A stretch of 64,000 nt of DNA. Source: Chiloscyllium plagiosum. Lineage: Eukaryota. Positions 5,236 to 59,450 of this stretch are shown piece after piece. The notes under the pieces are model-generated. The model searched no databases and was not told where the DNA came from. It worked only from the letters and a program-made list of their open reading frames with translations. The translations under genes and the position numbers were made by a program. The stretch spans positions 86,543,514 to 86,607,513 of the forward strand of contig NC_057718.1 in assembly GCF_004010195.1 (NCBI RefSeq), given 5' to 3'. Numbering within the stretch: position 1 is the stretch's first letter; each line of letters opens with the position of its first letter.

Positions 5236-5987
5236 TTGCAAAGCAATAATGCATACACTGAAGAAATTTTAACTACGATCCATAGTGTGTTGTAAGCTTG
5301 TACAGCATAGGTTTAAATAATTTCTACTACATTCAACTGTGAAGCAACACAAAGCAAAGGAATAGCAGCACAGAACTTAAAAAAAACTATGTTTGAAAGC
5401 ATCAATATGTTCAAATCTGTGTTTACAATCAACAATGCATTTGCCACCGTATTCATGTAGTGCTTGGCAGGGTTGATTCCAGAGACTAGTAAAACATGGC
5501 AATCTGGATGGCAACTCAAGGCACACTACAAACTTCAATGTTTAGTGCTTAGTTATACCTGCATACAGAAAGGTCTTGCATATATTATGTCATTGGTGCC
5601 ATGGGTGCACAGGTTAAGTTTACGTTGTAATGGTGCAGGATTTGAACACCTATCAATTCAGATGAGGGAGAAAAAAAAAAACTAGCCACACCACACATCT
5701 GCTGGTACCACCTTGCTGCAGCTTCACACTTGCCAGTTAAAAATGAAACCAAGCCACATAAAATTTCTTCCAAATCTGCACTTGATTCTGAAAATCCTTT
5801 ATAACAGCTCTTCCCCAGGCAAGGTTTATTGAATTCATTGCAAGAATACTGCTCCACACCAGTTAAGTGTGTGGATGTTTTTTTTTCCAGTCCAAAAACA
5901 AGCTGCAATGCTGTCATTTTCAAAGCATTTAGAACGGGAGATATGTACTCCACATTAACATCAGGTTCTGAGCACACAGATGAAGCT
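5215..5987 (-). other. PCMT1: Probable PCMT1 3' UTR (exon 8)
   Basis: TE-free AT-rich stretch between the exon 8 stop and an AATAAA; the 3' end is approximate. Confidence 0.7.
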
Positions 5988-6000
5988 TCACATTTCATCC
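5988..6000 (-). CDS. PCMT1: PCMT1 terminal exon 8, coding part of the alternative isoform (...PR-DEM*)
   Basis: Acceptor ctctctctttaaacccacag|G GAT GAA ATG TGA; joined to CCA AG| at 23807 it gives R-D-E-M-stop, matching the RDEL-isoform architecture of mammalian PCMT1. Confidence 0.8.
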
Positions 6001-23796: not shown

Positions 23797-23976
23797 TCAC
23801 TTCCACCTTGGCACTTGCTTATCTTGATCTGTTAAAGGCACGTAGATCACTCCCATCAGGGGTTTCGTGCTGATGCTGCCATTCGCTAGCTTGTCATGTT
23901 GCTCCAACATCTGGTTTCCTCCCGGAGGGCCGACTGGCAAAATCATCCTCCCACCTGGCTTCAACTGATCGAGCAA
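23797..23976 (-). CDS. PCMT1: PCMT1 exon 7 coding part ([10 protein letters not shown]...[10 protein letters not shown])
   Basis: Acceptor ctttctccag|, TGA at 23799-23797; candidate donors AG|GTGGAA (23807/23806) and AAG|GTGAAG (23770/23769). Confidence 0.96.
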
Positions 23977-26900
23977 CTGGAGAAAGCCAGAATGGTTTGC
24001 AGGCAGAGGGGGACAATAACAAGGAGAGGATAAAGCAAATGAGAGTAGAGACACGGAAGGGTGAGAAGCACAAGGAAAGGAGAGATTCACAGGGTGAGAG
24101 ACATTGAAAGCCAGAGTACAATCATTGTGATGGAAATAGAGAAATAGAGAGACAGCGAGCAGAGCGCGAGAGCGAGCGAGCGCGAGAGGAGAGAGAGAGA
24201 GAGAGAGAGATAGACAGGCGTACACAGAGGGGTGGAAGGAGAAAAAGAGGGGAAATTAGAGAACGTGGATGAATAAAATTTTATATCACTAAGAATTTCA
24301 ATTAATCACGTGCTGACCAATGCTTTTGCTTCTATACCCATCACATTAGCCAAGCTCCTTAACATCAGTTGCGACACAATATTTCCCTCACTGAGTCAAG
24401 AGGTTGCCCAGTCGAGGTCTACTCTAGAGGCAACCACAAAATTTTAGGTTGACAGTGCAGTACTCAGGGATTAAGGCACTGTTGGAGGCGGCCTTCTTCT
24501 ATCGAGACAAGACAGCAGCATCCTATCTATTGTCTCAGGTGAACAAGAATCGATCCCCAGACACTATGCAAAGACACAGAGTTATTCCAGTGTCCTGGTT
24601 AATACTTATCCTTCAAATCAGCTTGAGGCAGATCACCTTTGCTTTATCACATTGCTATTTGCGGATTCTTGCTGTGGGCAGAAGTGGTGTGTAATATAAA
24701 AACAAGTTTATTTTACTTGTTTTATTTAGTACGTATGCTTAACATTAACTTGCAAGGAGCAAGTAAAGTGCATAACATGATTTTGACTCGCTTGCTAACT
24801 ACAATACAATCTCACAATTCCGCCTGCCTCCTCACATCAGGCAGCAAACTGCATGCCTAAAACTGTAGCTGAATTTAAATAGTAATTGATACCATCACAG
24901 TAAAACAAAACAGAGGTCTCACTTTGAAGCAGTTAAACAGTTTGTTCATGTGCACAAGCCCTCAGAAATTAAGCAAAACCTTCCATTTAGTTCATGGCAT
25001 TTGATTCCAGTGAAGTTGCCAAGTTTATAATGCTGACTCCAAATGTTTCAATGAACGATCCTCAGACAATACACAGTTTCTTGAAATGAATGTCACAACA
25101 TTAAATTACTGCCTACAAGTCAGCAGACTATCCTGTGTAGAATTAATCCAGATTTAGCCAGTTTGAGAGAATGCAAGAACATTCTGGGTACGTATCAGGT
25201 TACAAGTGCATCTTTATTAATCAACCCAATTCATCTCTGCACAATAGCTCTTAATTTTTAACCAAACATTATCTTGAATGTGTCTCAAAAGTGGGAAATT
25301 TAGCTGAAGTTAAAAGAACAAAACTGACCGTTTCCTAGCTACTATTTGGTGTCTACTTGTGGCACTGATCCAATTACAAAAATATTAGCTTTTGGACAGG
25401 AGAATGAATTTTAGAAATCCAACTTGGGTGTCAGGTGAGGACAGATTTGAACTACACCATGGAACCATCAAACTAAAATATTCAGCCCAAGTCAATGAAA
25501 GGATTAGATTAGATTAGATTTGATTAGATTCCTAACAGTGTGAAAACAGGCTCTTCGGCCCAACAAGTCTACACCAACCCTCCGAACAGTAACCCACCCA
25601 GACCCATTTCCCTCTGACTAATGCACCTAACACTATGGGCAATTTAGCATGGCCAATTCACCTGACCTGCACATCTTTGGGCTGCGGGAGGAAACCTGAG
25701 CACCCGGAGGAAACCCACACAGACACGGGGAGAATGTCTGTGTGGAGCTTGCACAGTCACCAGAGGCGAGAATCGAACCTGGGACCCTGGTGCTGTGAGG
25801 CGGCAGTGCTAACCACTGAGCCACCGTGCTGCCCCAAGAAACTGAACTGAAACAACCATGTGAAAATGTTTGCTTAAATTCAAGTACTTTTCACACATGT
25901 AGGTAGTACCGATAGTAGAACACAGCCCAAAAACATATTCAGTCAGATCAGGCTTGAAACTCAATCTCTTCATAGATGCTACCAGGTCTATTGGTTTTCT
26001 CCAACATTTTGTTTTCATTTCAACTGTTTCAGCGTGCAGCATTTTGCTTTTATTTTTAAAAGAATTAGTCTCTACTTTGGAGCAGATGGTTCCGTGCTTA
26101 TTGCGATTTCAGTTCAGTCAACACAGGAAAAAAAACAGAATAATGTAGAGACCTCATCCTGCAACGCACTGCATTTTTCTCCAGCTTACAGTATTGTTTG
26201 AAAATGACTTACTGCCTGTGGGACCATGCTTGCTGCTGCCCCCACATGGATGGCATCATAAGGAGCTTCCTCTGGATATCCTTGTCTCCCATCGCCCACT
26301 ATGAACAACAATTGAATATCAAACAATTAAAATTATTCAAAGGAGGAATTTTAACATTTATGATTCCAAAAAGAACAAATCAATTTTCAAAAAAAGTGTT
26401 TCTATTGTGCTCTATTTGCACCCATTAATCAGTTGCAGAGGACAGGTTTTACACACTATTTCAGACAAAACCAAAAGAAAAGGTAGAAGCTGAACAGTTC
26501 AAACAGAAATTCAATTTTGTGGTACCACTTTCCAGTTAATCATTGATAGATATGCACACAAAGCTGCTCACTCACCTAAAAACTTTATTCTTCCTGATGA
26601 CAGCAAGGTTGGATCATCTTTCTTAACATTATTTATGGAGTCATTTACCAGTTCCTTAATATGCTCAATTCCCACCACTCTTCCACTTGGACCGACCTGG
26701 ATAAAAAGACATATCTGCATAATTTCTAAACTATTCCTTTCCCTTCCGTGGTAGGTTTGATCTAACGTTTGCATGATGCTTTGCTGTAGATTTGAAAGGG
26801 ACACAAGCTGGGTTCACAAAAGGAAAACAATAGTGAAAGGAAGAATGCAGTTACAGGAGGTGAAGGAGGCAAATGGTACAATGGCCTTTATAGTGAGAGA

Positions 26901-29900: not shown

Positions 29901-32900
29901 TTCTATGACTCTAGCGGGGGGGGGGGGGGGGGGGGACCGAAGGTTAGAGAATTCTGTATAGAGTAACTCCATTCTCAACTATTTTCACTGAAACAATATT
30001 ACTTTTGTGATGGAAACCATACTCTCTCATGGTACTGTAATAATATGGATCAACAGCATACATTCCAGAGAGCCTGCCAGGTGCTTGGTCCAGACAAAGA
30101 AACAATGATGTTGGCATTCATTCCCATCATGGCAGAACTGGGTAACAATGCAGGTAGGAGACATATTTCAGATTTCACAGTAATAGGTTATTTAATGTAA
30201 ATAGCAGCGACCTGAAGGTAGCACAATTTTCTTCAAATGGGATCCTTAGTGCTGTTCACTTTCCTGCTCCTGAAAGCCTACTCAGTAAATGGGCCTAGAG
30301 ATGGTCTGCAAAACCTACTTCAACTTGGCACCTCACAGAACAGCTACTTACCATCCGAGCAAAGCAGGATGTGAGGATTCCACTGCCAGATCCCACATCA
30401 AGTGCTTTAGCCCCTTCATATAATTGATCATGTAGCAGTTCCAGGGCATATGCATGCTGCGAGAACAACAGATCACAACATAAATATCAATTAGGTACAT
30501 TCACAATGACTCAGTTACATGATTTCAATCAAGGTGATTTCCTTAATCAGTTTCAAATTACATCTTTTAGAGAGAGTTGGGGATACAAGGTGCATCATCT
30601 TTCATTTTGGTTAGAATATCAAACAACTTTAGCAAACCAATGCATCATAACTCAACAGTATTTAGGTACCTTTACAAAATCTTGCCAAAGCCTCACACTG
30701 AAAAGCAAACTTCACTCAAATTGACCTTTTTTTTAAAAACCAAGCACATTTGGCCACAGTTTAAAACATTCGATAATTGCTGCAAGTAATCGTGAAGGAA
30801 GCCAGGAATGGTCATGGTGTTTCAGGAAATGCAGATGACAAAATCATACTGTAGCAGTAAGGCTAGGAAAACTGAGCATCTGGTTAGATTCGAGTCACCG
30901 TGCCATGTAGTACAGGCCAAAGAAATGATACCTCCTTCAAACGTCTGTTGTGCAACTTAAAACACAAAAAGAAATGACTAAAATAAAAACAACAAGCAGC
31001 AGCTGCGGACATAGAGAAAGGGTTGATATTTCAAGTCCAATAGAGAAGGGAAGTAGAAATCTGACATGTTTTTACTGCTTTCCATGACCCACCCAAAAAA
31101 GACAGACTGGGGCAGATTAGAAAGCAGAAGGAATTAAATAATAATAAAAAAAAATCATGGAACACAAGGCGAAGCAAATGCCAATGGTGACAGTAAAGAA
31201 AAAATATTGTTCCAGACTAAGTGTTAATGGCAGAATAAAGGACAGCTCAGACAGAAAGCAGAACATGAAAAGAAGATACAGACTGGCATGACACAAAAAG
31301 TCTGAAGTTGTTGTACTCAATGTTGAAACCAGAGGCTAACAAGTGCCTAACTGGAAGTGCCTCGGCCTGCACTGGACTTCAGCAGAACTTTGCAGCAGAG
31401 GTCAGAAATGTGATCAGAACATGCGCATGCTAAATTGCCCATAGTGTTCAGGGATGTGTAGACTAGGTGCATTAGTTAGGGGAAAATGCAGATTAATAGG
31501 TGGAGGGGAATGGGTCTGAGTAGGATACTCGGAGGGTCAGTGTGGACTTGTTGGGTCTAATGGCATGTTACCAAACAGTAGGAACTTGAATTCTAAAAAT
31601 CATCAAGCTTCTTTCCTTTTTATATTCCACAAGTCATCCAAAAATATATGCCCAAGTTACATATCATAATACATACTAAGCATTGCTATTTAATATCAAA
31701 TTTTACATCTTGGATATAGGCTTTGACCCAACAAGTTTATTTCACAAATAAACTACTTTATATCATTGCACCATAACAGCACATTACCCTTTCTCCCAGT
31801 AGTGCCTTAGTTATTCTTAGCAAGTTTGGGGTTATAAAGACGACTTGAAATGTTAACGCTTTCTCTCTCCACAGATGCTTCCAATCCTGCTGAGTTGCTC
31901 TAGCATTGTCTATCTGTTTCAAGAGTTATATTGTTTTATAACAAAAAGCATATTATTGCTACAGAACATGAATGCATCATCAGGTCTGATCTCCAACGAC
32001 TGGATATATCCTATCGCCATTTGGGCTTCCTTTTCCTTAACACTGAGGCTGAAACCCAACTATTTCCCATGAACATCTGCACTCATTTTTCTTAATTTTA
32101 AGGCGCTGGATCAATACAAAATGAAGAATACTGAGTCATGTTAGAGGTGGCATGAGCATCTGTTACACAAATCTGCTGCACAGAAGGAGGAAGTTGTCTC
32201 ATGGTGTGGTGTCTCATTCTGCCTGCGCCAGAAGCTTCAGGCTCAAATTGCATTCCATGCTTTAATGGCCAAGGAAGGGAGTGTGCATAATGCAATCAAA
32301 CAGGTTAAGTGACAAATACTTCAAAAATATACCAATGACAGGTACTAAGAGCCAGGCAGATTCCTGATCAGCCATGTGATGAAAGTAACTGAAGCCACTA
32401 TCCATAACTCCAGCCTACACTATACAGGATAAGAGAATGTTAACAGCAATTCTGAATCCTTGGGGACATGGCCAGTGGCTAGATGGTCCATCTGGTTCAG
32501 AGTGGAGCCATATCACTGAGTTAATTTCCCGCTCTGGCTGGAATCTTGCATTTTCATTGCAAATGCAAGCGATAGAAACAGAAAGTTCATGACATTATCA
32601 CTTGCTACATAAAAGCACTCTTCACATGTCCCCTGAATCTCGACAAAAAGAAAAATCCATTACCTTTCATTTTTACATTATCAACAAATAAGAACAAATT
32701 TTGACTACCTTACCTAAACAGGTTGATTTCGTACACCATGATTACATCACCCCTTATTCTATTTTGCCTCGAGAAGAACAAAACCTCATCTTCCGCCTGG
32801 GCAGCCTACAGCCTGAAGGACTCAACATTGAGTTCCCCAATTTTAAATAACCTCCCTTCCCTGGATTCCCTTCCCAGCACCTCCCCCTCCATCCCATTCC

Positions 32901-38900: not shown

Positions 38901-41900
38901 TGCTAGATTGCACCCTGAATTCCCCCGTGCCGAGTAGACACCAATAATGGAAGTCCACAGCAGGAACACCAATCAAGCCAACTGCTCCCTCATAATGGTG
39001 TTGAACTTGGAGCACTGATATGACAACAACCCATCGCAAGGTTCAGAAGGCACTGTTAAAGCACTCAACCTTTGTCTGTTCTTGAAGCCACACTAGTGAC
39101 ACGGCTGATCTAATTCAATTTCTAAGCAATGGTGACATCGTCCCTCCTACTTCTAATATACAGAAGGTCTTAACAATGATGCTGCTGTACTCTGGAGGTC
39201 ATAGGAAAATATCCTGGCTTTGAACTGGCTCAGGATTTTAAATGTCACAAGGTAGGAGAGTTGCCATTTAAATTACTTGTCGACAGCTTGTCGATCTTAT
39301 AAAGGGTCCAGGACACTTCTAAGGAACTTAAAGTGACTTCTTTGTTGCAGAGATGATTGTCTTCTGACATTTCAAACCATTTTCTTTTACTTCACATACG
39401 ACTCCAACTATTAAAAGGATTTTTTTATTTGACCACTGATTCCAGCTTTTCCAGCAAGCCTAGGTGTCAATGACAAAGACCATCAACTTTCTCTGGAATT
39501 CAGCTCTATTCACATTGAGTCAAAGTTGCAATGCAGTTTGCAGCATAGGCTCAACTAATACCGTTGTAAACCTCACTGAAACATACACAGCCTTCAATAT
39601 AAAGGCAGCACTTTATCAAAAAATAACTTGCACTTACCATGTGTGGAGCACTGATTGTAGCTTGGAAACCTATAAAACAAAGCAAGTTCCATTTATTTAC
39701 AAATGTGAAACATTTTTAAATCTTGCAATTCATGTGAGTAAATGCATAGCTGCAATGTGCAAATGATATCCTTGGCAACATTGTCAAAACAGACTTTTAT
39801 GTACAATACATCATTATAACACAATGAATGGAGCACAACAAATGAAATAAGTCTCAGGATTCTCTGCCAAGGGTCAAAATTTATTTTTTTTGAGAGCTAC
39901 GAGTGAGGCACTCAAGGACTACTTTCTCATATTCACTAACTCCTTTATTAGACAATGCACTCATATACTAACATTACCTTTGTGTGTGTGCTGAATCCTA
40001 TCTTAAAATAAAGTTCTCTTTTAGAGCAATAGGACACCACAAGCACCAAAGACTATGTACATTTTAAGTTTTCAAACTTGGAATCTATAAACAAAGTGCG
40101 TGTTTTGAAAAGAGCAAAGAATGGCATTAAGTCAGGACACTCATTTGGGCAGCTGCTGCAGACATGGTGGGCCCGAATGGCCTCCTTCTGCACAATTATT
40201 TTATGACAACTAAAATCTCCCATAAATTGTGCAATGGTAGGACAGGGGCTGATTCTAACGTCCACTCTGTTTTCCAAATCAACTGGTTGATCTATTGCAG
40301 AAACAATACCAATAAACAGAAGCTCCCTTAACAGATAAATGTCGTTCTTGAACTACCTGATGTCACTGTGGGTTTCTTCAGCCAGTTCCACTGATGGTTC
40401 AATACGGTGTGCTTCTGAAGTATCTCGTAGGCTTTTAGTTGAAGTCTATGCAGTACCAATATATTGTTGCTTTACAATGATAAATAGCCTTGTCTAGCAC
40501 TGGAAGGCATTTGATTTCTTCACTCAAGTTAAATTTGAGCGCCACATTCTTTGAAACACAAGAGACATAAAGTTTGCTTGTTTTTTTAGATTACTTACAG
40601 TGTGGAAACAGGCCCTTCTGCCCAACAAGTCCACACAGACCCGCCAAAGCGCAACCCACCCAGACCCATTCCCCTACATTCACCCCTGCCCCTAACACTG
40701 CAGGCAACTTAGCATGGCCAATTCACCTAACCTGCACATTTTTGGACTGTGGGAGGAAACCGGAGCACCTGGAGGAAACCCACGCAGACACGGAGAATGT
40801 GCAAACTCCACACAGTCAGTCGCCTGAGGCAGGAATTGAACCCAGGTCTCTGGCGCTATGAGGCAGCAGTGCTAACCACTGTGCCACCGTGCCGCCCACT
40901 TTGTAGGCAAATACATAGAAACTTACTAAAGATCCTTAGACAGCACATTCCAAGCTTGGAAATATATCACTGTTCCTTCACTGGCACTGCGTCAAAATCC
41001 TGGAATTCCCCAAGGACATTGTGGATCAACCTACAGCACATGGCCTACAGTGGTTCAAGAAGGCAGCTCACTACCACCATTTCAAGGGCAACAATGTTTA
41101 GACAATAATTGCTGGCCAGCTAGCAATGCCCATGTCCTACATGTGAATAAAAATAAGCATGATTGATGAGCATCCTTAACAGCTCTTTTTTCCCCCAAAA
41201 GTTTACTTATCAGGAACAACCTATAGCTTGTTTTAGTGAGCTTCCTCATCGCCATCTAGCATTTGAGTTCTGCACGCCCTTTCCCTAAACCCCAGTACAT
41301 CCTTCCCACTGACATTCAAGCGCTGCTCCCTCCCCTTCCTCACTGATGCTCAGTCTTGGCCCGAAAGCACACTTCCCTCTGAACAGCCACTGTTCTAGTC
41401 CCCTGAAACTTTGCTGCACAAACTCAATCAGAGTTCAATCCTCCCTGTCCTTACTATGCCTTCAAATCACATTTTTCAAACTGGAGTAAGAACAATAGAA
41501 GCAAAATCTATGAATGGTGGAGCTGGAACAGGCAAAATGAGGGAGAGATGGTGTATCCCTTTTCGCCCCGCTTTTGGGAGGGAAGGTATGATTTTTTTTT
41601 AAGAATTACTCAATCACTCTTTCGATTTAATTTTTAAAGGAGCATTTTGTGATATCTGGGGCAATTTGCTTGCCTCCCCCATGTTGAGAAACCTGCTGCC
41701 TACAAGCCAAGACTGGAAATCAAAGACAGCAAGAATGCAGATATGAGCATGTGCTAGGAATGAATGATAATTGAAGGCAGAGGGTAGAAGAGTGGAGAGA
41801 GGAGAAACTTGCTCGCCAAACCCACCTGATAACAGGTAATGGAATTTGGTAGTGCTTGCGACTATTATCACAATCAGAATGTGTCATCAGGTGCTCAACA

Positions 41901-44900
41901 GGTCAACAGCATTTGTATTTTCCTGCAGTTGCGCATAATTGAATGGATAGCCAAATGAATGCGGTAAAGAAAGCTTAACCTCATGATTTGTTCCCTTTGG
42001 ATCTGATTAATGTTTTCATAAAAGAGAGCAGGGAAAGTGGCAGCAGACAGGCTCTTATTAAGGAGGGAAGCTCTCTCCTGGTCAGTGCCAAGTTTCTTAA
42101 ATATTGTTGAAGGTGCACTCATCTAGGTATGTGGGGAATATTTCATCAGTATCCTGACTTGCGTCTTGTAGGTGGGTGAACCCACACTTCGGAGAAATTA
42201 GGTGCTGGGTTATTCACTGCAAGATTCCTAACCTCTGACCCACTTTAATAGCCAATGTATTTATATTACTAGAATCGAGAGTGGGGTGCTGGAAAAGCTG
42301 GAATTCCTGATGAAGGAGTTTTGCCCGAAACATCGATTCTCCTGCTCCTTGGATGCTGCCTGACCTGCTGTGCTTTCCAGCATCTCACAGCTCTAATCTC
42401 CAGCATCTGCAGTCCTCATTTTCGCCCGTTTGTTTCACTAGTCCAGTTTAGTTTCTGGTCAATGGTAACTCCCTTCACATTAACATTTTTTTTGTGGGAG
42501 AGGGGAGACAGTGAAGTAACACCATTGCATGTCAATGGCCAATGCATTGATTCTTTTATTAGAGATGGTCATTACATGGCATTTGTCTGGCACGAATGAC
42601 ACTTGTTCCTCTTTAGTCCAAGCCTGGACATTGTCCAGCTTTTGCTGAATTTGGACATGGGCTACTTCAGTATCTATGTTGTTGTGAATGGTAGTGAAAT
42701 TTGTAATCATCTGCAAACATCCCACTTTATGTTATCATAGAGGGTCAGTCATTGATGGAGCAGCTCAAGATGGTTGAGCCTAGAATGCTACTGTGATAGT
42801 GTTCCTACACCAGGGTCACAATGTCTGGGTTCAAGACCCATCTGCTCCAGTCATGTGTAATAACATTTCTAAACAGGTTGATTAGAAGGTATCTGAGGAA
42901 CTATATAGTCTTGTGGCACACAAGTAGCATCCGTATCTTTGGGACTACAAGATTTGAATTCAAGGCCTATCAGTTCCAGAGGCGCATCATAACATATCTG
43001 AGCAAGCTGACTGAAATGCATTACCAGAGGAAGTCTTGCAGAGATGTTTGACCTCCAACAAACACAACCATCTTCTTTTCTGCTAGGTATGACTGCAGGA
43101 CAACTCCCTCCTGACTGCGTACTACTATGCCACCACCTTTGCTGGGTCTGTCATGGCAGTGAAACAAGACATATCCAGGGACAGTGATGGCGGTGAAAAC
43201 AAAAAAGTATTGGAGATCATAGCAGGTCAGGCAACATCCATGGAAAAAAAGCAAGCTAACGTGTTGGGTCTAGATGACACTGTACGTCAGCTCTGATGAA
43301 GAGTCATCTCGACTCGAAACATTAGCTTGCTCTCTCCATGAATGCTACCTAACCCGTTGTGATCTCTGGCACTTTTTTGTTTTCAGTACAGATTCCAGAA
43401 TCTACAGTAATTTGCTCCTATATACGTTGGCGGTGGTATCTGGACATTGGCTGGAAAGTATGACTCCATGAGTATGACTATACAAGGCTGTTGCCTGACA
43501 GGTCTGTTAAACAGTTCTCCCACTTTTGGTACTAGCCAAACGGAGGCCTCTGCAAAGTTGGCATTGCTCAGTTTGCCGTTGTCATTTCTGGGGCCAGAGC
43601 CAGGTGATCCATCTGGTTTCACTTTGTTTTATCAATTTCTAGGAAGTCTCAAAAAGGAGTTTGCTACGCCACCTCCGAGGGCAGTTAAGTGTCAACCACA
43701 TTGATCTAGGTCTACAGTCACTCATAGACTGGTTTCCTTCCCTAAAGGACATTAGTGTTTTTTTACAGCAACTAACAATGGGTTTCATGTCATCATTAGA
43801 CATTTAATACCAGATTTTTATTGAATTCCTGGTGGGATTCGAATGCAGGTATCCAGAACACTACCTGGGTCTCAGGATTAGTCTAGAGATAGGCTAGTAA
43901 ACCATCACTACTTCTCTAAATACGATTATTTCAAATAAACTAAAACAAATAGCGATTAAGATTCAGTACACCCAGCTTATGATCAAAAAAAGTGTGTTTC
44001 CAGTCGTAAACAACAATCCCTCACTCAAACAGAAGTAAAAAAATTAGAGGAGGAAATTGCAGTTTGGCTCTACTGGGGCGGGGGGCAGCATGTGCTTAAC
44101 ATAATGTTTGGAAAAAACCAAAACTTCTGCAGCTCCTCTGCTCAGGTACTTCCTACAAATAGGCTGGATTTCAAAACAGACCACTTACAATGGAAGTCAT
44201 CACTTAGTAGAAGTTGCACAATAAAATTTGCACAAAAATCACGGCAACTTACAAGTTACTATGGCTGTTTCACAAGTTTTCTCTGGTGAATAAGGTAAGT
44301 TGATTATACAAGTATTTTTTGAAAAGCATATTTATTTACCATGCTATGATGTTCATACGTTAAAAATATAACAAAATATATGAGTTATTCTAAAAATATC
44401 CATTGAAATTATAAGTTAAATGCAACTAATTTCTAGAACAGATGTCAAGAGGTCAATAATTCAAATAGGCCAGCAATAATTTCTTGCAATATTCGAAGCC
44501 CACTGCATTGGAAATACAGATTAAGGCACAGCCAAACGTGCATTAGGTAATGGGGAGGGATGATCAGGTTGTTGCTGAAAAGAGAAGTACTTTGGAAATG
44601 CTTACCTATAGACTGAGGGGAATCTGTATAAGGATTACTCTTTACATAGTGGCAACGGTCTGTAGCCAACATTACATTATAAACTTTCTCTGTCTTGACT
44701 ATTCCATTCTCTGTAAAAGATGAAAAAGGAAAGTATTTATGAACTTCCCCATTTGGAACTGCAAATATTAAGAACAGTGACATTAGGAAATATATACATT
44801 AATTTTTTAAAATCAACCTGTTATGACATTTCGGCCGCAGCTGGGATTTGAATCAGGGCATTTGGGCTCAGAGATAGGGATATTACCACAAGAGCCCCAA

Positions 44901-56900: not shown

Positions 56901-58283
56901 CTTGACGTGTATCTGCTCTCTTATTTGAGAGAAACAACTTGCAATGGTTTAACTCCAGGGTCACCATGCCTCAGGTGAGGCAAGAGCTTGAGGAGGACAG
57001 TCCTTCATGGTAACCTCATCCAGTGTGGGAACTGAACCCACAATGTCAGAATCATTTTGCATCACAAGTCAGCCATCCAGCCAGCTGAGCTAACTGACCA
57101 CAATACTGATGGCAGTGACGATCAGTGCACCAGGGGATCTTTCTCTGGGGTATGAGCAGAGAGATTAGAGTTGAAAGCATAAATGACACAATCCTTTCAA
57201 CATTACACTGGGATGACAGCCAAGACTACACATTCAATTGAAATTTTGTTTAAAAGCTCAACATAAAAGAATTCAGCAATCTAAATAACTGAATAATAAA
57301 TTATCAATTGGATTAATTTCTGAAAAGGTAAAATTGCAGGGCTAGCAAAACGGTTAGGGTCTTACATTAGATGGATTATCAGGTGAGCAGTTATTAAGGC
57401 ACACCAGAGCTGGCCCTTGCAGCATTCAGTAAGGTGAGAGCTGGCCTGGATTCTGGCATCAACTGTACTGACAAAGGGGTCACTGGACTGAACCGTTTTT
57501 TTTCTCTCTGGACTGATGATGCCAGCCCCGGTGAATTTCAACAGCACTTTCCGTTTTTGTTTCGGACTGCCAGCATGTGCAGTTCCTTGTCTTTTTTTAA
57601 AAAGAAAATACATCACTCGGCTTTCCCTCCCTGCTCCCCCACAACGGATGAAAATCCTGTCTACCTCAGCCTTGAAGACGGCCATCAGCGAGAGAGTGAC
57701 CCAGCCCCTCTCCCCGCAGGGCTGTTTCTGATCACACGGTGAAAGCTGCTGTTGACATCTGACAGCTCTGCAATGGTCAGCGCATTTTTTTAAATATAAA
57801 GGGAAGGAGACCACTTTGATCTTAACTCTCGCCCCCCCCCCCCTCCCGGGCTGCACCGCAGGGTCGGTGCGTGTGTGGGGGGGGGGGTAGGGTGGGAGCT
57901 GCCACCCACCTCCTGCCCGTCTCCCCGGGAGACGGCAGGGATCCTCGCCCTGCCCCCACCCTTCCAGCAGCCGGCCACCGCCCCCCTTTCTGGGATTGCC
58001 GCCCGGCAGGGAGCCGGCGCAGTGCTCCGGTGAGCTTCTGCCGGCCGGACGCGGTGTGGTGTGGTGTGGTGTGGTATCTCTTCCCCCACCCCCCCGGGCG
58101 GGCAGGCAGGCACTCACTCCGCAGGTTGTTGACGAGCTCCGCTTGGCTCTCTCCGCCGCACTTCCAGGCCATCCTCTGACACAGCGCGCGCAGCAGGTAC
58201 AGGGCCGCCGTCAGCAACACGCCTGCGCACACCGCTCTACCCACAATGCTGATCACCTCCAGCGCGTCGCCGCCGGCCTCCAT
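23797..58283 (-). CDS. PCMT1: Protein-L-isoaspartate(D-aspartate) O-methyltransferase (PIMT), 7 coding exons, RWK-ending isoform; 227 aa from ATG 58172, 264 aa from ATG 58283
   Basis: Hand-spliced coding exons of 55(166)/105/32/105/121/86/180 nt total 684 nt from MAWK with consistent phases. Translation contains [13 protein letters not shown] motif [21 protein letters not shown] and [12 protein letters not shown]. Orthologue versus paralogue status is not settled. Confidence 0.96.
23979..24288 (-). promoter_or_regulatory. AG-exclusion zone with distant branch point for exon 7
   Basis: No AG on the sense strand for ~310 nt upstream of the acceptor; tctctAAt (branch A ~24256) followed by a long pyrimidine tract with (CT)n/(CTCG)n. 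Confidence 0.7.
24365..24690 (+). mobile_element. Deu-domain SINE (SacSINE1/AmnSINE1-like)
   Basis: gtgcagtactcaggga...cactgttggagg, ctcaggtg, gtgtcctggttaatacttatcc, tatcacattgctatttgcgga match the Deu core as recalled. Confidence 0.7.
25502..25834 (-). mobile_element. HE1 V-SINE, full length
   Basis: Box A/B head, V-domain, (TCTAA)n tail. Confidence 0.93.
26213..26298 (-). CDS. PCMT1: PCMT1 exon 6 ([29 protein letters not shown])
   Basis: Acceptor ttgttcatag|, donor GCA|gtaagt, 86 nt. Confidence 0.96.
26576..26696 (-). CDS. PCMT1: PCMT1 exon 5 ([40 protein letters not shown])
   Basis: Acceptor ttttatccag|, donor G|gtgagt, 121 nt. Confidence 0.96.
28208..29913 (+). mobile_element. CR1 element with 5' UTR, partial ORF1 and ORF2 3' end (internally deleted)
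   Basis: ORF1 CTSC...CHKC zinc finger, coiled coil and SGNH esterase [10 protein letters not shown]...CFPGA; jumps at ~29465 to ORF2 [16 protein letters not shown]; tail ttctatgactcta. Confidence 0.9.
28416..28490. repeat. (GGGAAA)n plus (GA)n microsatellite
   Basis: About 8 GGGAAA units, then a GA run. Confidence 0.95.
29916..29935. repeat. Poly-G run (~20 nt)
   Basis: Directly visible after the CR1 tail. Confidence 0.9.
30352..30456 (-). CDS. PCMT1: PCMT1 exon 4 ([35 protein letters not shown])
   Basis: Acceptor gttctcgcag|, donor ATG|gtaagt, 105 nt; SAM-binding motif I; absent from the ORF track. Confidence 0.96.
32770..33181 (+). mobile_element. Penelope (Neptune-type) 3' fragment
   Basis: [27 protein letters not shown]-terminus, pyrimidine-rich spacer, decayed hammerhead ~33053-33089. 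Confidence 0.8.
33793..35706 (+). mobile_element. pogo/Tc2 (POGK-like) DNA transposon fossil with TIRs
   Basis: [11 protein letters not shown] (Brinker-like DBD), [12 protein letters not shown] (CENP-B HTH), NMDKTP...TTGHEK...TKLKP (DDE_1). Imperfect TIRs cctttatatactttttgtaa (33793-33812) and ttacacaagtatatatgg|TA (35689-35706). Confidence 0.88.
37471..37501 (+). promoter_or_regulatory. Putative CTCF site with upstream motif
   Basis: AGCAATACT-N8-CCACCAGAGGGTGG resembles the CTCF U-motif plus core CCASYAGRKGGCRS. Confidence 0.45.
39638..39669 (-). CDS. PCMT1: PCMT1 exon 3, 32 nt ([11 protein letters not shown])
   Basis: Acceptor ttgttttatag|, donor ATG|gtaagt; absent from the ORF track. 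Confidence 0.95.
40588..40897 (-). mobile_element. HE1 V-SINE, full length
   Basis: Same head, V-domain and tail as 12382-12700. Confidence 0.93.
43196..43427. mobile_element. Short palindromic Penelope-derived insertion with hammerhead core and 8-bp TSD
   Basis: Inverted arms 43194-43385; TGGCGGTG at 43188-43195 and 43428-43435. Confidence 0.8.
43289..43327 (+). ncRNA. Minimal hammerhead ribozyme motif (palindrome mutated)
   Basis: AGCT-CTGATGA-A-GAGTC atctc GACTC-GAAACATT-AGCT. Confidence 0.6.
44606..44710 (-). CDS. PCMT1: PCMT1 exon 2 ([36 protein letters not shown])
   Basis: Acceptor tcttttacag|, donor G|gtaagc, 105 nt. Confidence 0.96.
45411..46969. repeat. 49-bp direct repeat pair (45411-45459 and 46921-46969)
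   Basis: 47/49 identical, exactly 1510 nt apart. Confidence 0.9.
48190..49070 (-). mobile_element. Two adjacent CR1 3' fragments
   Basis: [25 protein letters not shown] and [20 protein letters not shown]. Confidence 0.9.
49998..52573 (+). mobile_element. Penelope (Poseidon-type) element with inverted terminal segment
   Basis: Plus 50705-52573: [42 protein letters not shown] (GIY-YIG). 49998-50704 is the reverse complement of the 3' ~680 nt. Confidence 0.92.
52670..53000 (-). mobile_element. HE1-like V-SINE (older copy)
   Basis: TGGCTCAGTGG head and V-domain. Confidence 0.85.
53633..53972 (-). mobile_element. CR1/HER1 3' fragment
   Basis: Reverse complement of 1350-1735 with an internal deletion. 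Confidence 0.9.
54990..55870 (+). mobile_element. Penelope (Neptune-type) 3' part with CA-rich spacer and hammerhead
   Basis: EHFSGPG...EQRLIAKF...GLN GIY-YIG end; hammerhead core at 55787-55815. Confidence 0.85.
55784..55818 (+). ncRNA. Minimal hammerhead ribozyme motif
   Basis: CAC-CTGATGA-A-GGAG cagca CTCC-GAA-AGCT-T-GTG. Confidence 0.65.
55885..56150 (+). mobile_element. Degenerate Deu-domain SINE
   Basis: Colinear similarity to 24430-24690. Confidence 0.55.
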
Positions 58284-58700
58284 TACGTCACGGCCCGAGA
58301 AGGCCCGCCCACTGCGCCTGAGGATCTGGGGTGGTGGGGGTGGGAGAGGCAACCGATTAATTAAAATCACAGCGGCCGAGTGCACCGCCCAGCCCGCAGA
58401 CTCTTCACTCGATCAGGGGACGATGCAGCACTCTTCAAGCGGTCACCGCTCCGCGAGATTTAGAAGTCCCGAAATGCCATTTCGATGCAAAACCGAGACG
58501 CAAATCCCTCTTTAGTGATTAAGGAGGATTAGGCGGGGATTGTCTTTGGTACAGGCCAGCCATTGATTACAACAACCCCCACGTGATGGGGGTGGAAAGG
58601 GCGGAGAGCAATGTGGCTCCTGTTCCCAAATCTAAATATAACCCCCAGTATCGATGCACGGCCCGATGTTGGCAACGACGGCCGCCTGTGGCATTGCACT
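57790..58700 (-). promoter_or_regulatory. CpG island / PCMT1 promoter and first exon
   Basis: Only GC- and CpG-rich stretch in the window; GC box GGGCGG 58599-58604, E-box CACGTG 58580-58585, CRE-like TGACGTAA abutting the upstream ATG (58290-58283). Confidence 0.85.
58118..58283 (-). CDS. PCMT1: PCMT1 exon 1 coding part (MEAGG...[22 protein letters not shown])
   Basis: ATG at 58283 (GTAatgG) and canonical ATG at 58172 (AGGatgG) are in frame; donor A|GTGAGT at 58117-58112, phase 1. Confidence 0.93.
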
Positions 58701-59450
58701 AGAGCATATCATGGACATCAGCAGACCACCCGTGGCATTGCACCAGAACCTACCACTAACATCAGCAGACCACCCGTGGCATTGCATTAAAACATGTCAT
58801 GAACATCAGCACCAGAACCTATCACTAACATCACCAGACCACCTGTGGCATTGCACTAGAGCACATCATTAACATCACCAGACTGACTGTGGCATTGCAC
58901 TAGAGCATATCATTATCAGCAGACTGCCTGTGGCGTTACAGTAGAACTTACCACTAACATGAGCAGACCACCTATAGCATTGCATTAGAATATATCGATA
59001 TCACCAGATCGCCTGTGACATTGCAGTAGAACATATTATTAACACCAGCAGACCACCCGTGTCATTGACATATAATTAACATCAGCCAGCCGCCCATGGC
59101 ATTGCACTACAATATATCACTAATATTTGCAGACCACCCATGGCATTGCACAAGGGGTGTATCATTAATATCAGCAGACTGCACTTGGCATTATACCAGG
59201 AACATATTAGAGATCCACCCGTGGCATTGCACAAATGAGTTGTTCCTGTGAATTGACCTCCAGTGGCATTCATATCAGCTGCCTTTTTTTGGCATGGTAT
59301 CAAGTGTGCAATATTAATATGCATAGACCACTTGTAACCTTGCAGCAGGAATATAATATGAATATCAACTGCCTTCCTCCAGCATTGCACTAGGTGCTTA
59401 ATGTTAATATCAAATTACCGTCTGTGGAATCACAGCAGGCATATCATTTT
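58687..59450. repeat. ~44-bp degenerate minisatellite, about 13-16 units
   Basis: Unit approx. GTGGCATTGCACTAGAACATATCATTAACATCAGCAGACCACCC, recurring at 58688, 58732, 58776, 58845, 58889, 58930... and decaying distally. Confidence 0.9.

Follow-up and report, generated by a model that had tools for sequence, protein, structure and literature searches.

A predicted N-terminal helix kept from sharks to humans in the long form of PCMT1, a candidate cytosol-facing membrane tether

Introduction

COMT is a class I S-adenosylmethionine (SAM) methyltransferase in which an upstream in-frame AUG adds a hydrophobic anchor, an established membrane segment, to give MB-COMT. S-COMT arises from a downstream AUG or from an internal promoter. 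Here we examined PCMT1, the gene for the isoaspartate repair enzyme PIMT, in a stretch of 64,000 nucleotides from the shark Chiloscyllium plagiosum (contig NC_057718.1; the whole stretch is termed “the window,” and positions are counted from its first letter). MB-COMT/S-COMT is the closest working analogy for the PCMT1 long form, since both have an upstream in-frame start, conserved in PCMT1, that adds a putative or established targeting segment. The anchoring of PCMT1 is a prediction, its helix is weaker than that of COMT, and the likeness is not based on sequence comparison. N-terminal variants of Arabidopsis PIMT2, a plant paralogue with import-type signals, are a further case in which alternative 5' ends redirect PIMT. 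That likeness concerns the alternative 5' ends only, and homology to the PCMT1 extension is not implied.

Long isoforms of human PCMT1 with the orthologous extension are known from annotation (RefSeq isoforms 1-5; GENCODE ENST00000367378/367380), and RefSeq already holds long and short N-termini, each with both C-termini (PMC7696048, Fig. 7 legend; unless otherwise noted, papers are cited here for the parts covered). The shark form differs from the human one in its linker (37 versus 58 aa), in having no internal Lys, and in its alternative end, RDEM. A zebrafish study stated that N-terminally extended PCMT1 isoforms may exist and left them out of that work (PMC7859441). The covered parts of a paper on membrane and extracellular PIMT substrates mention neither isoforms nor signal peptides (PMC12150319). 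We found no study of the function of the extension or of its conservation across jawed vertebrates in the PCMT1/PIMT literature within our coverage, which most subscription papers fell outside. The long isoform is already annotated, and the function and deep conservation of its N-terminal helix are apparently unstudied.

Results

An upstream in-frame start precedes MAWK in the shark gene

PCMT1 lies on the minus strand of the window, and its first exon contains the following features.

58173..58283, minus strand: N-terminal extension of PCMT1, 37 codons in frame (translation)
58188..58259, minus strand: conserved helix core E9-R32, 24 residues (uncharged run A17-L31)
58118..58172, minus strand: canonical start MAWK and the remainder of exon 1, then donor GTGAGT

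The 37 codons are open and run in frame into MAWK at 58172. An earlier note on this window had described an ATG in strong context at their head. We found this ATG at 58283-58281 with G at -3 and G at +4, while the MAWK ATG (58172-58170) has A at -3 and G at +4. No ATGs other than these two occur between 58400 and 58170 on the minus strand. The same note had described an uncharged core of about 16 residues followed by basic residues; the basic flank is there, but the run is 15 residues long (A17-L31). When the 111 nt were shuffled 5000 times with dinucleotides preserved, 31.6% of the shuffles were open, 0.08% were equally hydrophobic, and 0.06% were both.

Shortly after MAWK, the codon at 58161-58163 (minus) specifies Cys in elasmobranch records and Ser in bony vertebrates. 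In elasmobranchs, this is a second Cys close to the predicted membrane boundary.

The helix is conserved across jawed vertebrates

Using the 55-aa exon 1 as a query, we found the extension in all 24 matches. A profile search gave it in 120 of 120 listed matches, the best 120 of 244, with sharks, rays, bichir, sturgeon, teleosts, coelacanth, caecilians, axolotl, squamates, crocodile, and birds represented. Further carriers were frogs, turtles, marsupials, placentals, and human, as well as lungfish, gar, and zebrafish (long model P0403). These sets are biased toward carriers, as the matches were found via the extension, and MAWK is the annotated start in many vertebrate records. Among the named matches (120 of 244 listed, with 50% clusters hiding full-length members), we recognized no carrier from lamprey, hagfish, or invertebrates, which is no evidence of absence. 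Preservation of the frame in related sharks had been proposed as a check, and the extension was intact and in frame in 21 of the 22 elasmobranch records seen, the remaining one being without exon 1.

The similar segment that the earlier note had placed in a long human model is real. Human RefSeq NP_001238979.1 (P0278) has a 58-aa extension whose core is identical to that of the shark at 11 of 24 residues and similar at 16 of 24. The shark-to-human conservation that this would imply was likewise borne out, with the helix present in sharks, rays, bony fish, lungfish, amphibians, reptiles, birds, and mammals. The upstream Met is kept across linkers of widely differing length and sequence. A predicted helix of about 24-30 residues is kept from sharks to humans.

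One further record, P0150 (ENA, 5-member cluster; MAWR start), was considered as a helix homologue and not accepted, as its upstream sequence differs. It combines a PIMT-like N-terminus with a 49-aa Ser/Leu-rich upstream stretch, which we take to resemble a transit peptide.

The extension changes like a protein

Constraint was assessed in 36 lineages (21 fishes and 15 tetrapods), each represented by one record that we chose among the matches. Mean identity fell from 0.82 in the MAWK exon to 0.63 in the 24-column core and to 0.24 in the 12 columns upstream of it. The invariant residues were Glu(-20), Leu(-5), and Tyr(0), and Pro, Asp, Asn, Gln, and His occurred at none of the 792 core positions. 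Core pairs that differed had a mean BLOSUM score of -0.06, versus -0.60 for random single-base changes. All deletions seen were in frame, e.g., those of a salmonid copy and of loaches, which lie outside the 36 lineages.

The only outside DNA used was that of two fish contigs, L001 and L002, from a metagenome scan in which 2 of 173 pattern matches were confirmed. Between the shark and these contigs, the ratio of nonsynonymous to synonymous divergence (dN/dS) was 0.14 and 0.27, and third positions differed most. The +1 frame contained stops in the shark and in both fish contigs. In these comparisons, the extension looks like a selected protein segment.

Helix, flanking charges, and predicted topology

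AlphaFold2 predicted one helix in the Stegostoma orthologue, spanning residues 5-39, with a pLDDT of 76-79 over residues 11-30 and 68.9 overall. The core is ~90% apolar or small residues, a stripe of small residues (G-14, C/G-10, A-6, and A-2) runs along the helix, and both halves are amphipathic. The uninterrupted uncharged run is at least 15 residues in the 21 fishes and 8 in 14 of the 15 tetrapods. After the core, a Cys lies between Tyr and Met in 35 of 36 lineages, making it a possible palmitoylation site.

The N-flank is net acidic in all 36 lineages (charge, -1 to -4). Instead of the basic n-region of an endoplasmic reticulum (ER) signal peptide, we found a single conserved K/R immediately before the core. 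The C-flank has three basic residues in 23 of the 36, two in 12, and one in 1. Under the positive-inside rule for topology (PMC13261788), this acidic N-flank and basic C-flank predict that the catalytic domain is cytosolic. With a cytosolic catalytic domain, RDEL or RDEM could not serve as a retrieval signal.

The best 19-residue Kyte-Doolittle window scored 1.5-2.2, with an internal Lys in tetrapods, and the Wimley-White mean exceeded 0.4 in 0 of 36 lineages on two scales, with windows of our own. Hessa-type dG values were based on uncalibrated parameters and carry no weight here. Signal-anchors with a Wimley-White value below 0.4 and a basic C-flank have been linked to mitochondria rather than the ER, and the hydrophobicity of all 36 lineages falls below the ER signal-anchor threshold of that study (PMC4010795). 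Tom20-type signal-anchors of the mitochondrial outer membrane have the same single, moderately hydrophobic N-terminal segment with a basic C-flank (PMC4010795). Unlike these, PCMT1 has three basic flank residues in only part of the sample, Lys in the tetrapod core, and an upstream acidic linker of up to ~45 residues or more.

By a simple rule, no -3/-1 cleavage site near the core was common to sharks and tetrapods. A site before Met fit 14 of 36 lineages, and the sole universal site was 7 residues into the ancient enzyme. DeepLoc labels the human annotated long form as ER, with a differently localized truncation (PMC12718117), and a preprint gives that PCMT1 truncation as a CUG 113 nt into the extension (PMC11974929). 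A search of the extension against Pfam returned a sub-threshold bacteriocin match (E = 0.11), which we rejected as hydrophobic chance, and ESM Atlas gave no usable match. A complex prediction with two copies of the helix scored 0.03 and was not used either way.

Transcripts and initiation within the extension

Logan contigs of 981-1762 bp contained the complete spliced enzyme together with 16, 24, or 31 upstream codons. These were P0372 and P0371 (skate cluster) and P0241 (primate cluster), which may include processed pseudogenes. Spliced sequences thus reach well into the extension. Two Chiloscyllium models (281 aa) splice an upstream exon ahead of the ATG. A search of sequencing runs listed no RNA data set with this sequence. 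When 4 of 24 runs were aligned to 57950-58550, X2, whose RNA status is a guess, had a single contig of 182 nt (58307-58497), and X1, X4, and X19 had none, which is no test of expression or of start sites.

Start-site profiling in HeLa cells lists at least eight sites for PCMT1 (PMC11014515, Table S1). Among them are the MAWK AUG, with a log2 efficiency of 11.2; in-frame CUG/GUG starts at -81, -60, -57, -39, -33, and -27 nt, with log2 efficiencies of 8.2-12.0; and an ACG at -140, classed as “other.” Initiation within the extension is thus reported for human cells, and the complete long protein is a prediction. Several of the near-cognate starts have an efficiency at least equal to that of the canonical AUG, and the canonical site rises ~3.6-fold in mitotic arrest (PMC11014515). 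A HEK293T database derived from ribosome profiling has an entry for the upstream AUG at -174, under a code unexplained in the text covered (PMC10267514).

PCMT1 was absent from Table S1 of PMC12718117, and no tested pair was found in the covered parts of its other supplements. It was also absent from the main text of PMC7397870, and in the 9 of 13 supplementary files covered from PMC13219423 it occurred only in rows of immunoprecipitation-mass spectrometry data.

Gene structure and C-termini

The remaining exons of PCMT1 in the window are as follows.

44606..44710, minus strand: PCMT1 exon 2
39638..39669, minus strand: PCMT1 exon 3
30352..30456, minus strand: PCMT1 exon 4
26576..26696, minus strand: PCMT1 exon 5
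26213..26298, minus strand: PCMT1 exon 6
23797..23976, minus strand: coding part of PCMT1 exon 7; read-through gives RWK-stop, a donor after 23807 the RDEM form
5988..6000, minus strand: candidate terminal exon giving RDEM-stop, with pyrimidine tract and AG

The gene is intact, with canonical splice sites throughout, and splicing of its seven GT-AG exons yields 264 aa with RWK at the end. This product is identical to residues 18-281 of P0313 (Chiloscyllium RefSeq model XP_043552389), whose species we take to be C. plagiosum. P0313 scored 208.1 bits against TIGR00080, above the cut-off of 159.05, which places it in the PIMT/PCMT1 family (TIGR00080, PF01135). It matched the human PIMT structure 1i1n, a chain without the extension, with an E value of 2e-123. 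The gene in the window encodes PIMT/PCMT1, and isoaspartyl methyltransferase activity is predicted for its long form. A glycine-rich motif in exon 4 is presumably the SAM-binding one.

Use of the alternative donor (exon end, 23807) with the candidate terminal exon at 6000-5988 would give 265 aa ending in RDEM. Poly(A) hexamers lie past this exon at 5830, 5235, and 4943. A second donor-like site follows 23770 (minus), 37 nt beyond the first donor of exon 7. Through this site, the RWK mRNA may also be joined to the exon at 6000, which would then be 3' untranslated region. None of the shark protein records seen ended in DEL or DEM, and none used the candidate exon. C-terminal [KR]DEL was not found in the window, which has RDEM instead. 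Most bony-vertebrate records end in RDEL, and the terminal Leu is changed to Met in this shark and in Anolis. Fifty-seven long records end in DEL or DEM, all of them gene models and not long-read pairs. An “RDEL” at 25238 is located in intron 6 and was rejected as a C-terminus.

Elsewhere in the window, at ~700 (minus), there is a translated fragment of an ordinary repeat, presumably the end of a LINE retrotransposon ORF2.

Promoter region and upstream exons

The sequence around and upstream of the first ATG holds elements that could regulate transcription, including one resembling a cAMP response element (CRE).

57801..58800, no strand: GC-rich, CpG-island-like region (GC, 0.52-0.72; CpG observed/expected, 0.43-0.91)
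58284..58291, minus strand: CRE/ATF-like element GTGACGTA, adjoining the upstream ATG
58284..58327, minus strand: splice acceptor AG (58327-58326) and 42 nt in frame to the ATG, per the 281-aa Chiloscyllium models
58952..58960, minus strand: candidate 3' end of an upstream exon; it encodes Met-Leu-Val, as at the start of those models, and a GTAAGT donor follows

The GC-rich region contains GC boxes at 58305, 58385, and 58599 and an E-box at 58580. We take GTGACGTA to be a candidate CRE/ATF-like element. Its GTGACG lies at -119 from MAWK in the shark and in L001 and at -107 in L002. The element is just 5' of the ATG in the shark and inside the frame in the fishes, where it forms Gly-Asp-Val/Ala codons. 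This position makes a dual coding and promoter constraint possible. With T at -3 and +4, the upstream ATG has a weak context in L001 and L002, and its context in the shark is strong. An RNA G-quadruplex near the PCMT1 translation start has been reported (PMC11884054).

A second candidate for the 3' end of an upstream exon starts at 58762 (minus). Just upstream of the promoter region is a 44-bp tandem repeat (58688-59207), the source of Met-Leu-Val and its donor; the Chiloscyllium first exon was perhaps born from this repeat and is perhaps lineage specific. In the fish contigs, a conserved block lies upstream of the ATG (L001, ~850-980; L002, ~300-500) and, in L002, signals resembling a donor and an acceptor come after it. 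These fishes may therefore have a first exon that is non-coding.

Discussion

We lean, with a little better than even confidence, toward a model in which the upstream start yields a minor long PIMT isoform whose conserved helix tethers it to an organelle membrane with the catalytic domain in the cytosol. The mitochondrial outer membrane and the ER are about equally likely as the target. In this model, the long form would come from transcripts that start upstream of 58283. The ordinary soluble form would come from leaky scanning or from transcripts that start within the extension, downstream of the CRE/GC-box cluster. The helix would either insert with its N-terminus out and its C-terminus cytosolic, as a weak signal-anchor, or lie in the cytosolic leaflet, and palmitoylation of the conserved Cys after it might aid attachment. 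An enzyme tethered this way would repair isoaspartate on cytosol-facing parts of membrane proteins. PIMT activity in a membrane fraction has been cited (PMC12150319). The choice between RWK and RDEM is independent of the tether in this model, and an ER-retrieval switch for the long form is unlikely.

Several observations weigh against this model. Lys/Arg occurs inside the core in 15 of 15 tetrapods, with Glu as well in frogs, which is poor for a true transmembrane helix. Given these charges and the amphipathic halves, it is equally plausible that the helix lies on the surface or is kinked and that it truly spans the membrane. The ER label given by DeepLoc disagrees with our hydrophobicity estimate, which leans mitochondrial. 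The upstream AUG (-174) is not among the eight PCMT1 sites in the part of the HeLa listing covered (PMC11014515). In HEK293T cytosol, the PCMT1 N-terminal peptide row seen is acetyl-AWK, and two extension strings searched in the covered supplements of the same paper gave no match (PMC10267514). The pairing of two starts with two C-termini proposed in the earlier note is matched in human RefSeq, which has long and short forms with RWK and RDEL (PMC7696048), and use of the upstream AUG itself is a prediction. Outside the 36 lineages, koala has Phe and Rhineura Cys in place of the invariant Tyr, and carp has Asp in place of Glu. Losses are under-sampled because the extension was the means of finding the matches, and short annotations are frequent among vertebrate records. 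The dN/dS below 1 expected of a coding extension was seen in the shark-fish pairs, whose dS is close to saturation, but not between L001 and L002, where 6 nonsynonymous and 2 synonymous core differences gave ~1.1 with low power. Synonymous divergence between the two fishes was also lower in the core than in the MAWK exon. This low divergence and the ratio of ~1.1 make an overlapping constraint at the DNA or RNA level probable.

In another account, the sequence is conserved mainly as a promoter or 5' untranslated region, or else as a regulatory leader that is translated, and the long protein is a product of annotation that matters little for function. The CpG-island setting, the CRE-like motif at -119 in the shark and one fish contig, the upstream AUG missing from the HeLa sites (PMC11014515), the low synonymous divergence of the fish pair, and proteomics rows seen that match the 227-aa entry all fit this account. 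Against it, the shark-fish differences are mainly at third positions with the amino acids kept, helix breakers number 0 of 792, the deletions seen are in frame, and the upstream Met persists across varied linkers. We think it a rather poor bet. We give slightly more credence, while still holding it unlikely, to a helix that is translated and selected for protein binding or regulation (partner binding, helix-helix packing, or a degron) with no lipid anchor. The invariant Glu, Leu, and Tyr and the small-residue stripe exceed what a generic anchor needs, and the two amphipathic halves and the internal Lys of tetrapods also point this way. A core that is ~90% apolar or small, a basic C-flank, and the juxtaposed Cys are harder to reconcile with it.

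The earlier note had proposed isoaspartate repair in the ER or secretory pathway. On that reading, the helix would be an ER signal, either cleaved or an N-cytosolic anchor, that delivers PIMT to the ER lumen or secretory pathway, with retrieval via RDEL/RDEM. DeepLoc's label for the human annotated long form (PMC12718117) agrees with that reading, the proposal of RDEL as an ER signal is an old one, with calreticulin a reported substrate (PMC7859441), and an extracellular PIMT role has been proposed (PMC12150319). The 57 long gene models ending in DEL/DEM and the 15-residue uncharged run of fishes can be added. However, the acidic N-flank and basic C-flank predict the opposite topology, tetrapods have Lys/Arg in the core, and no nearby -3/-1 site is common to sharks and tetrapods. 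The RDEL-type ends argue little for lumenal import, because this shark and Anolis have Met for the terminal Leu and the exon is unused in the shark records seen, none of which ends in DEL/DEM. ER-lumen or secretory-pathway repair is not supported, and we regard it as improbable. If it were true, isoaspartate would be repaired in the secretory pathway, the 30-year RDEL puzzle would be solved, and a lumenal SAM supply would be implied. We know of no established lumenal SAM supply.

The novelty of a cytosol-facing tether is limited, as annotations of the isoform already exist and targeting by dual starts is common. If true, it would shed new light on four missense variants that ClinVar lists for the human extension, in its upstream part. 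PIMT has nearly always been studied as a 227-aa cytosolic protein, yet its membrane-fraction activity, its membrane and extracellular substrates, and its RDEL tail are unexplained (PMC7859441, PMC12150319). A predicted helix kept from sharks to humans offers a testable cause of those puzzles.

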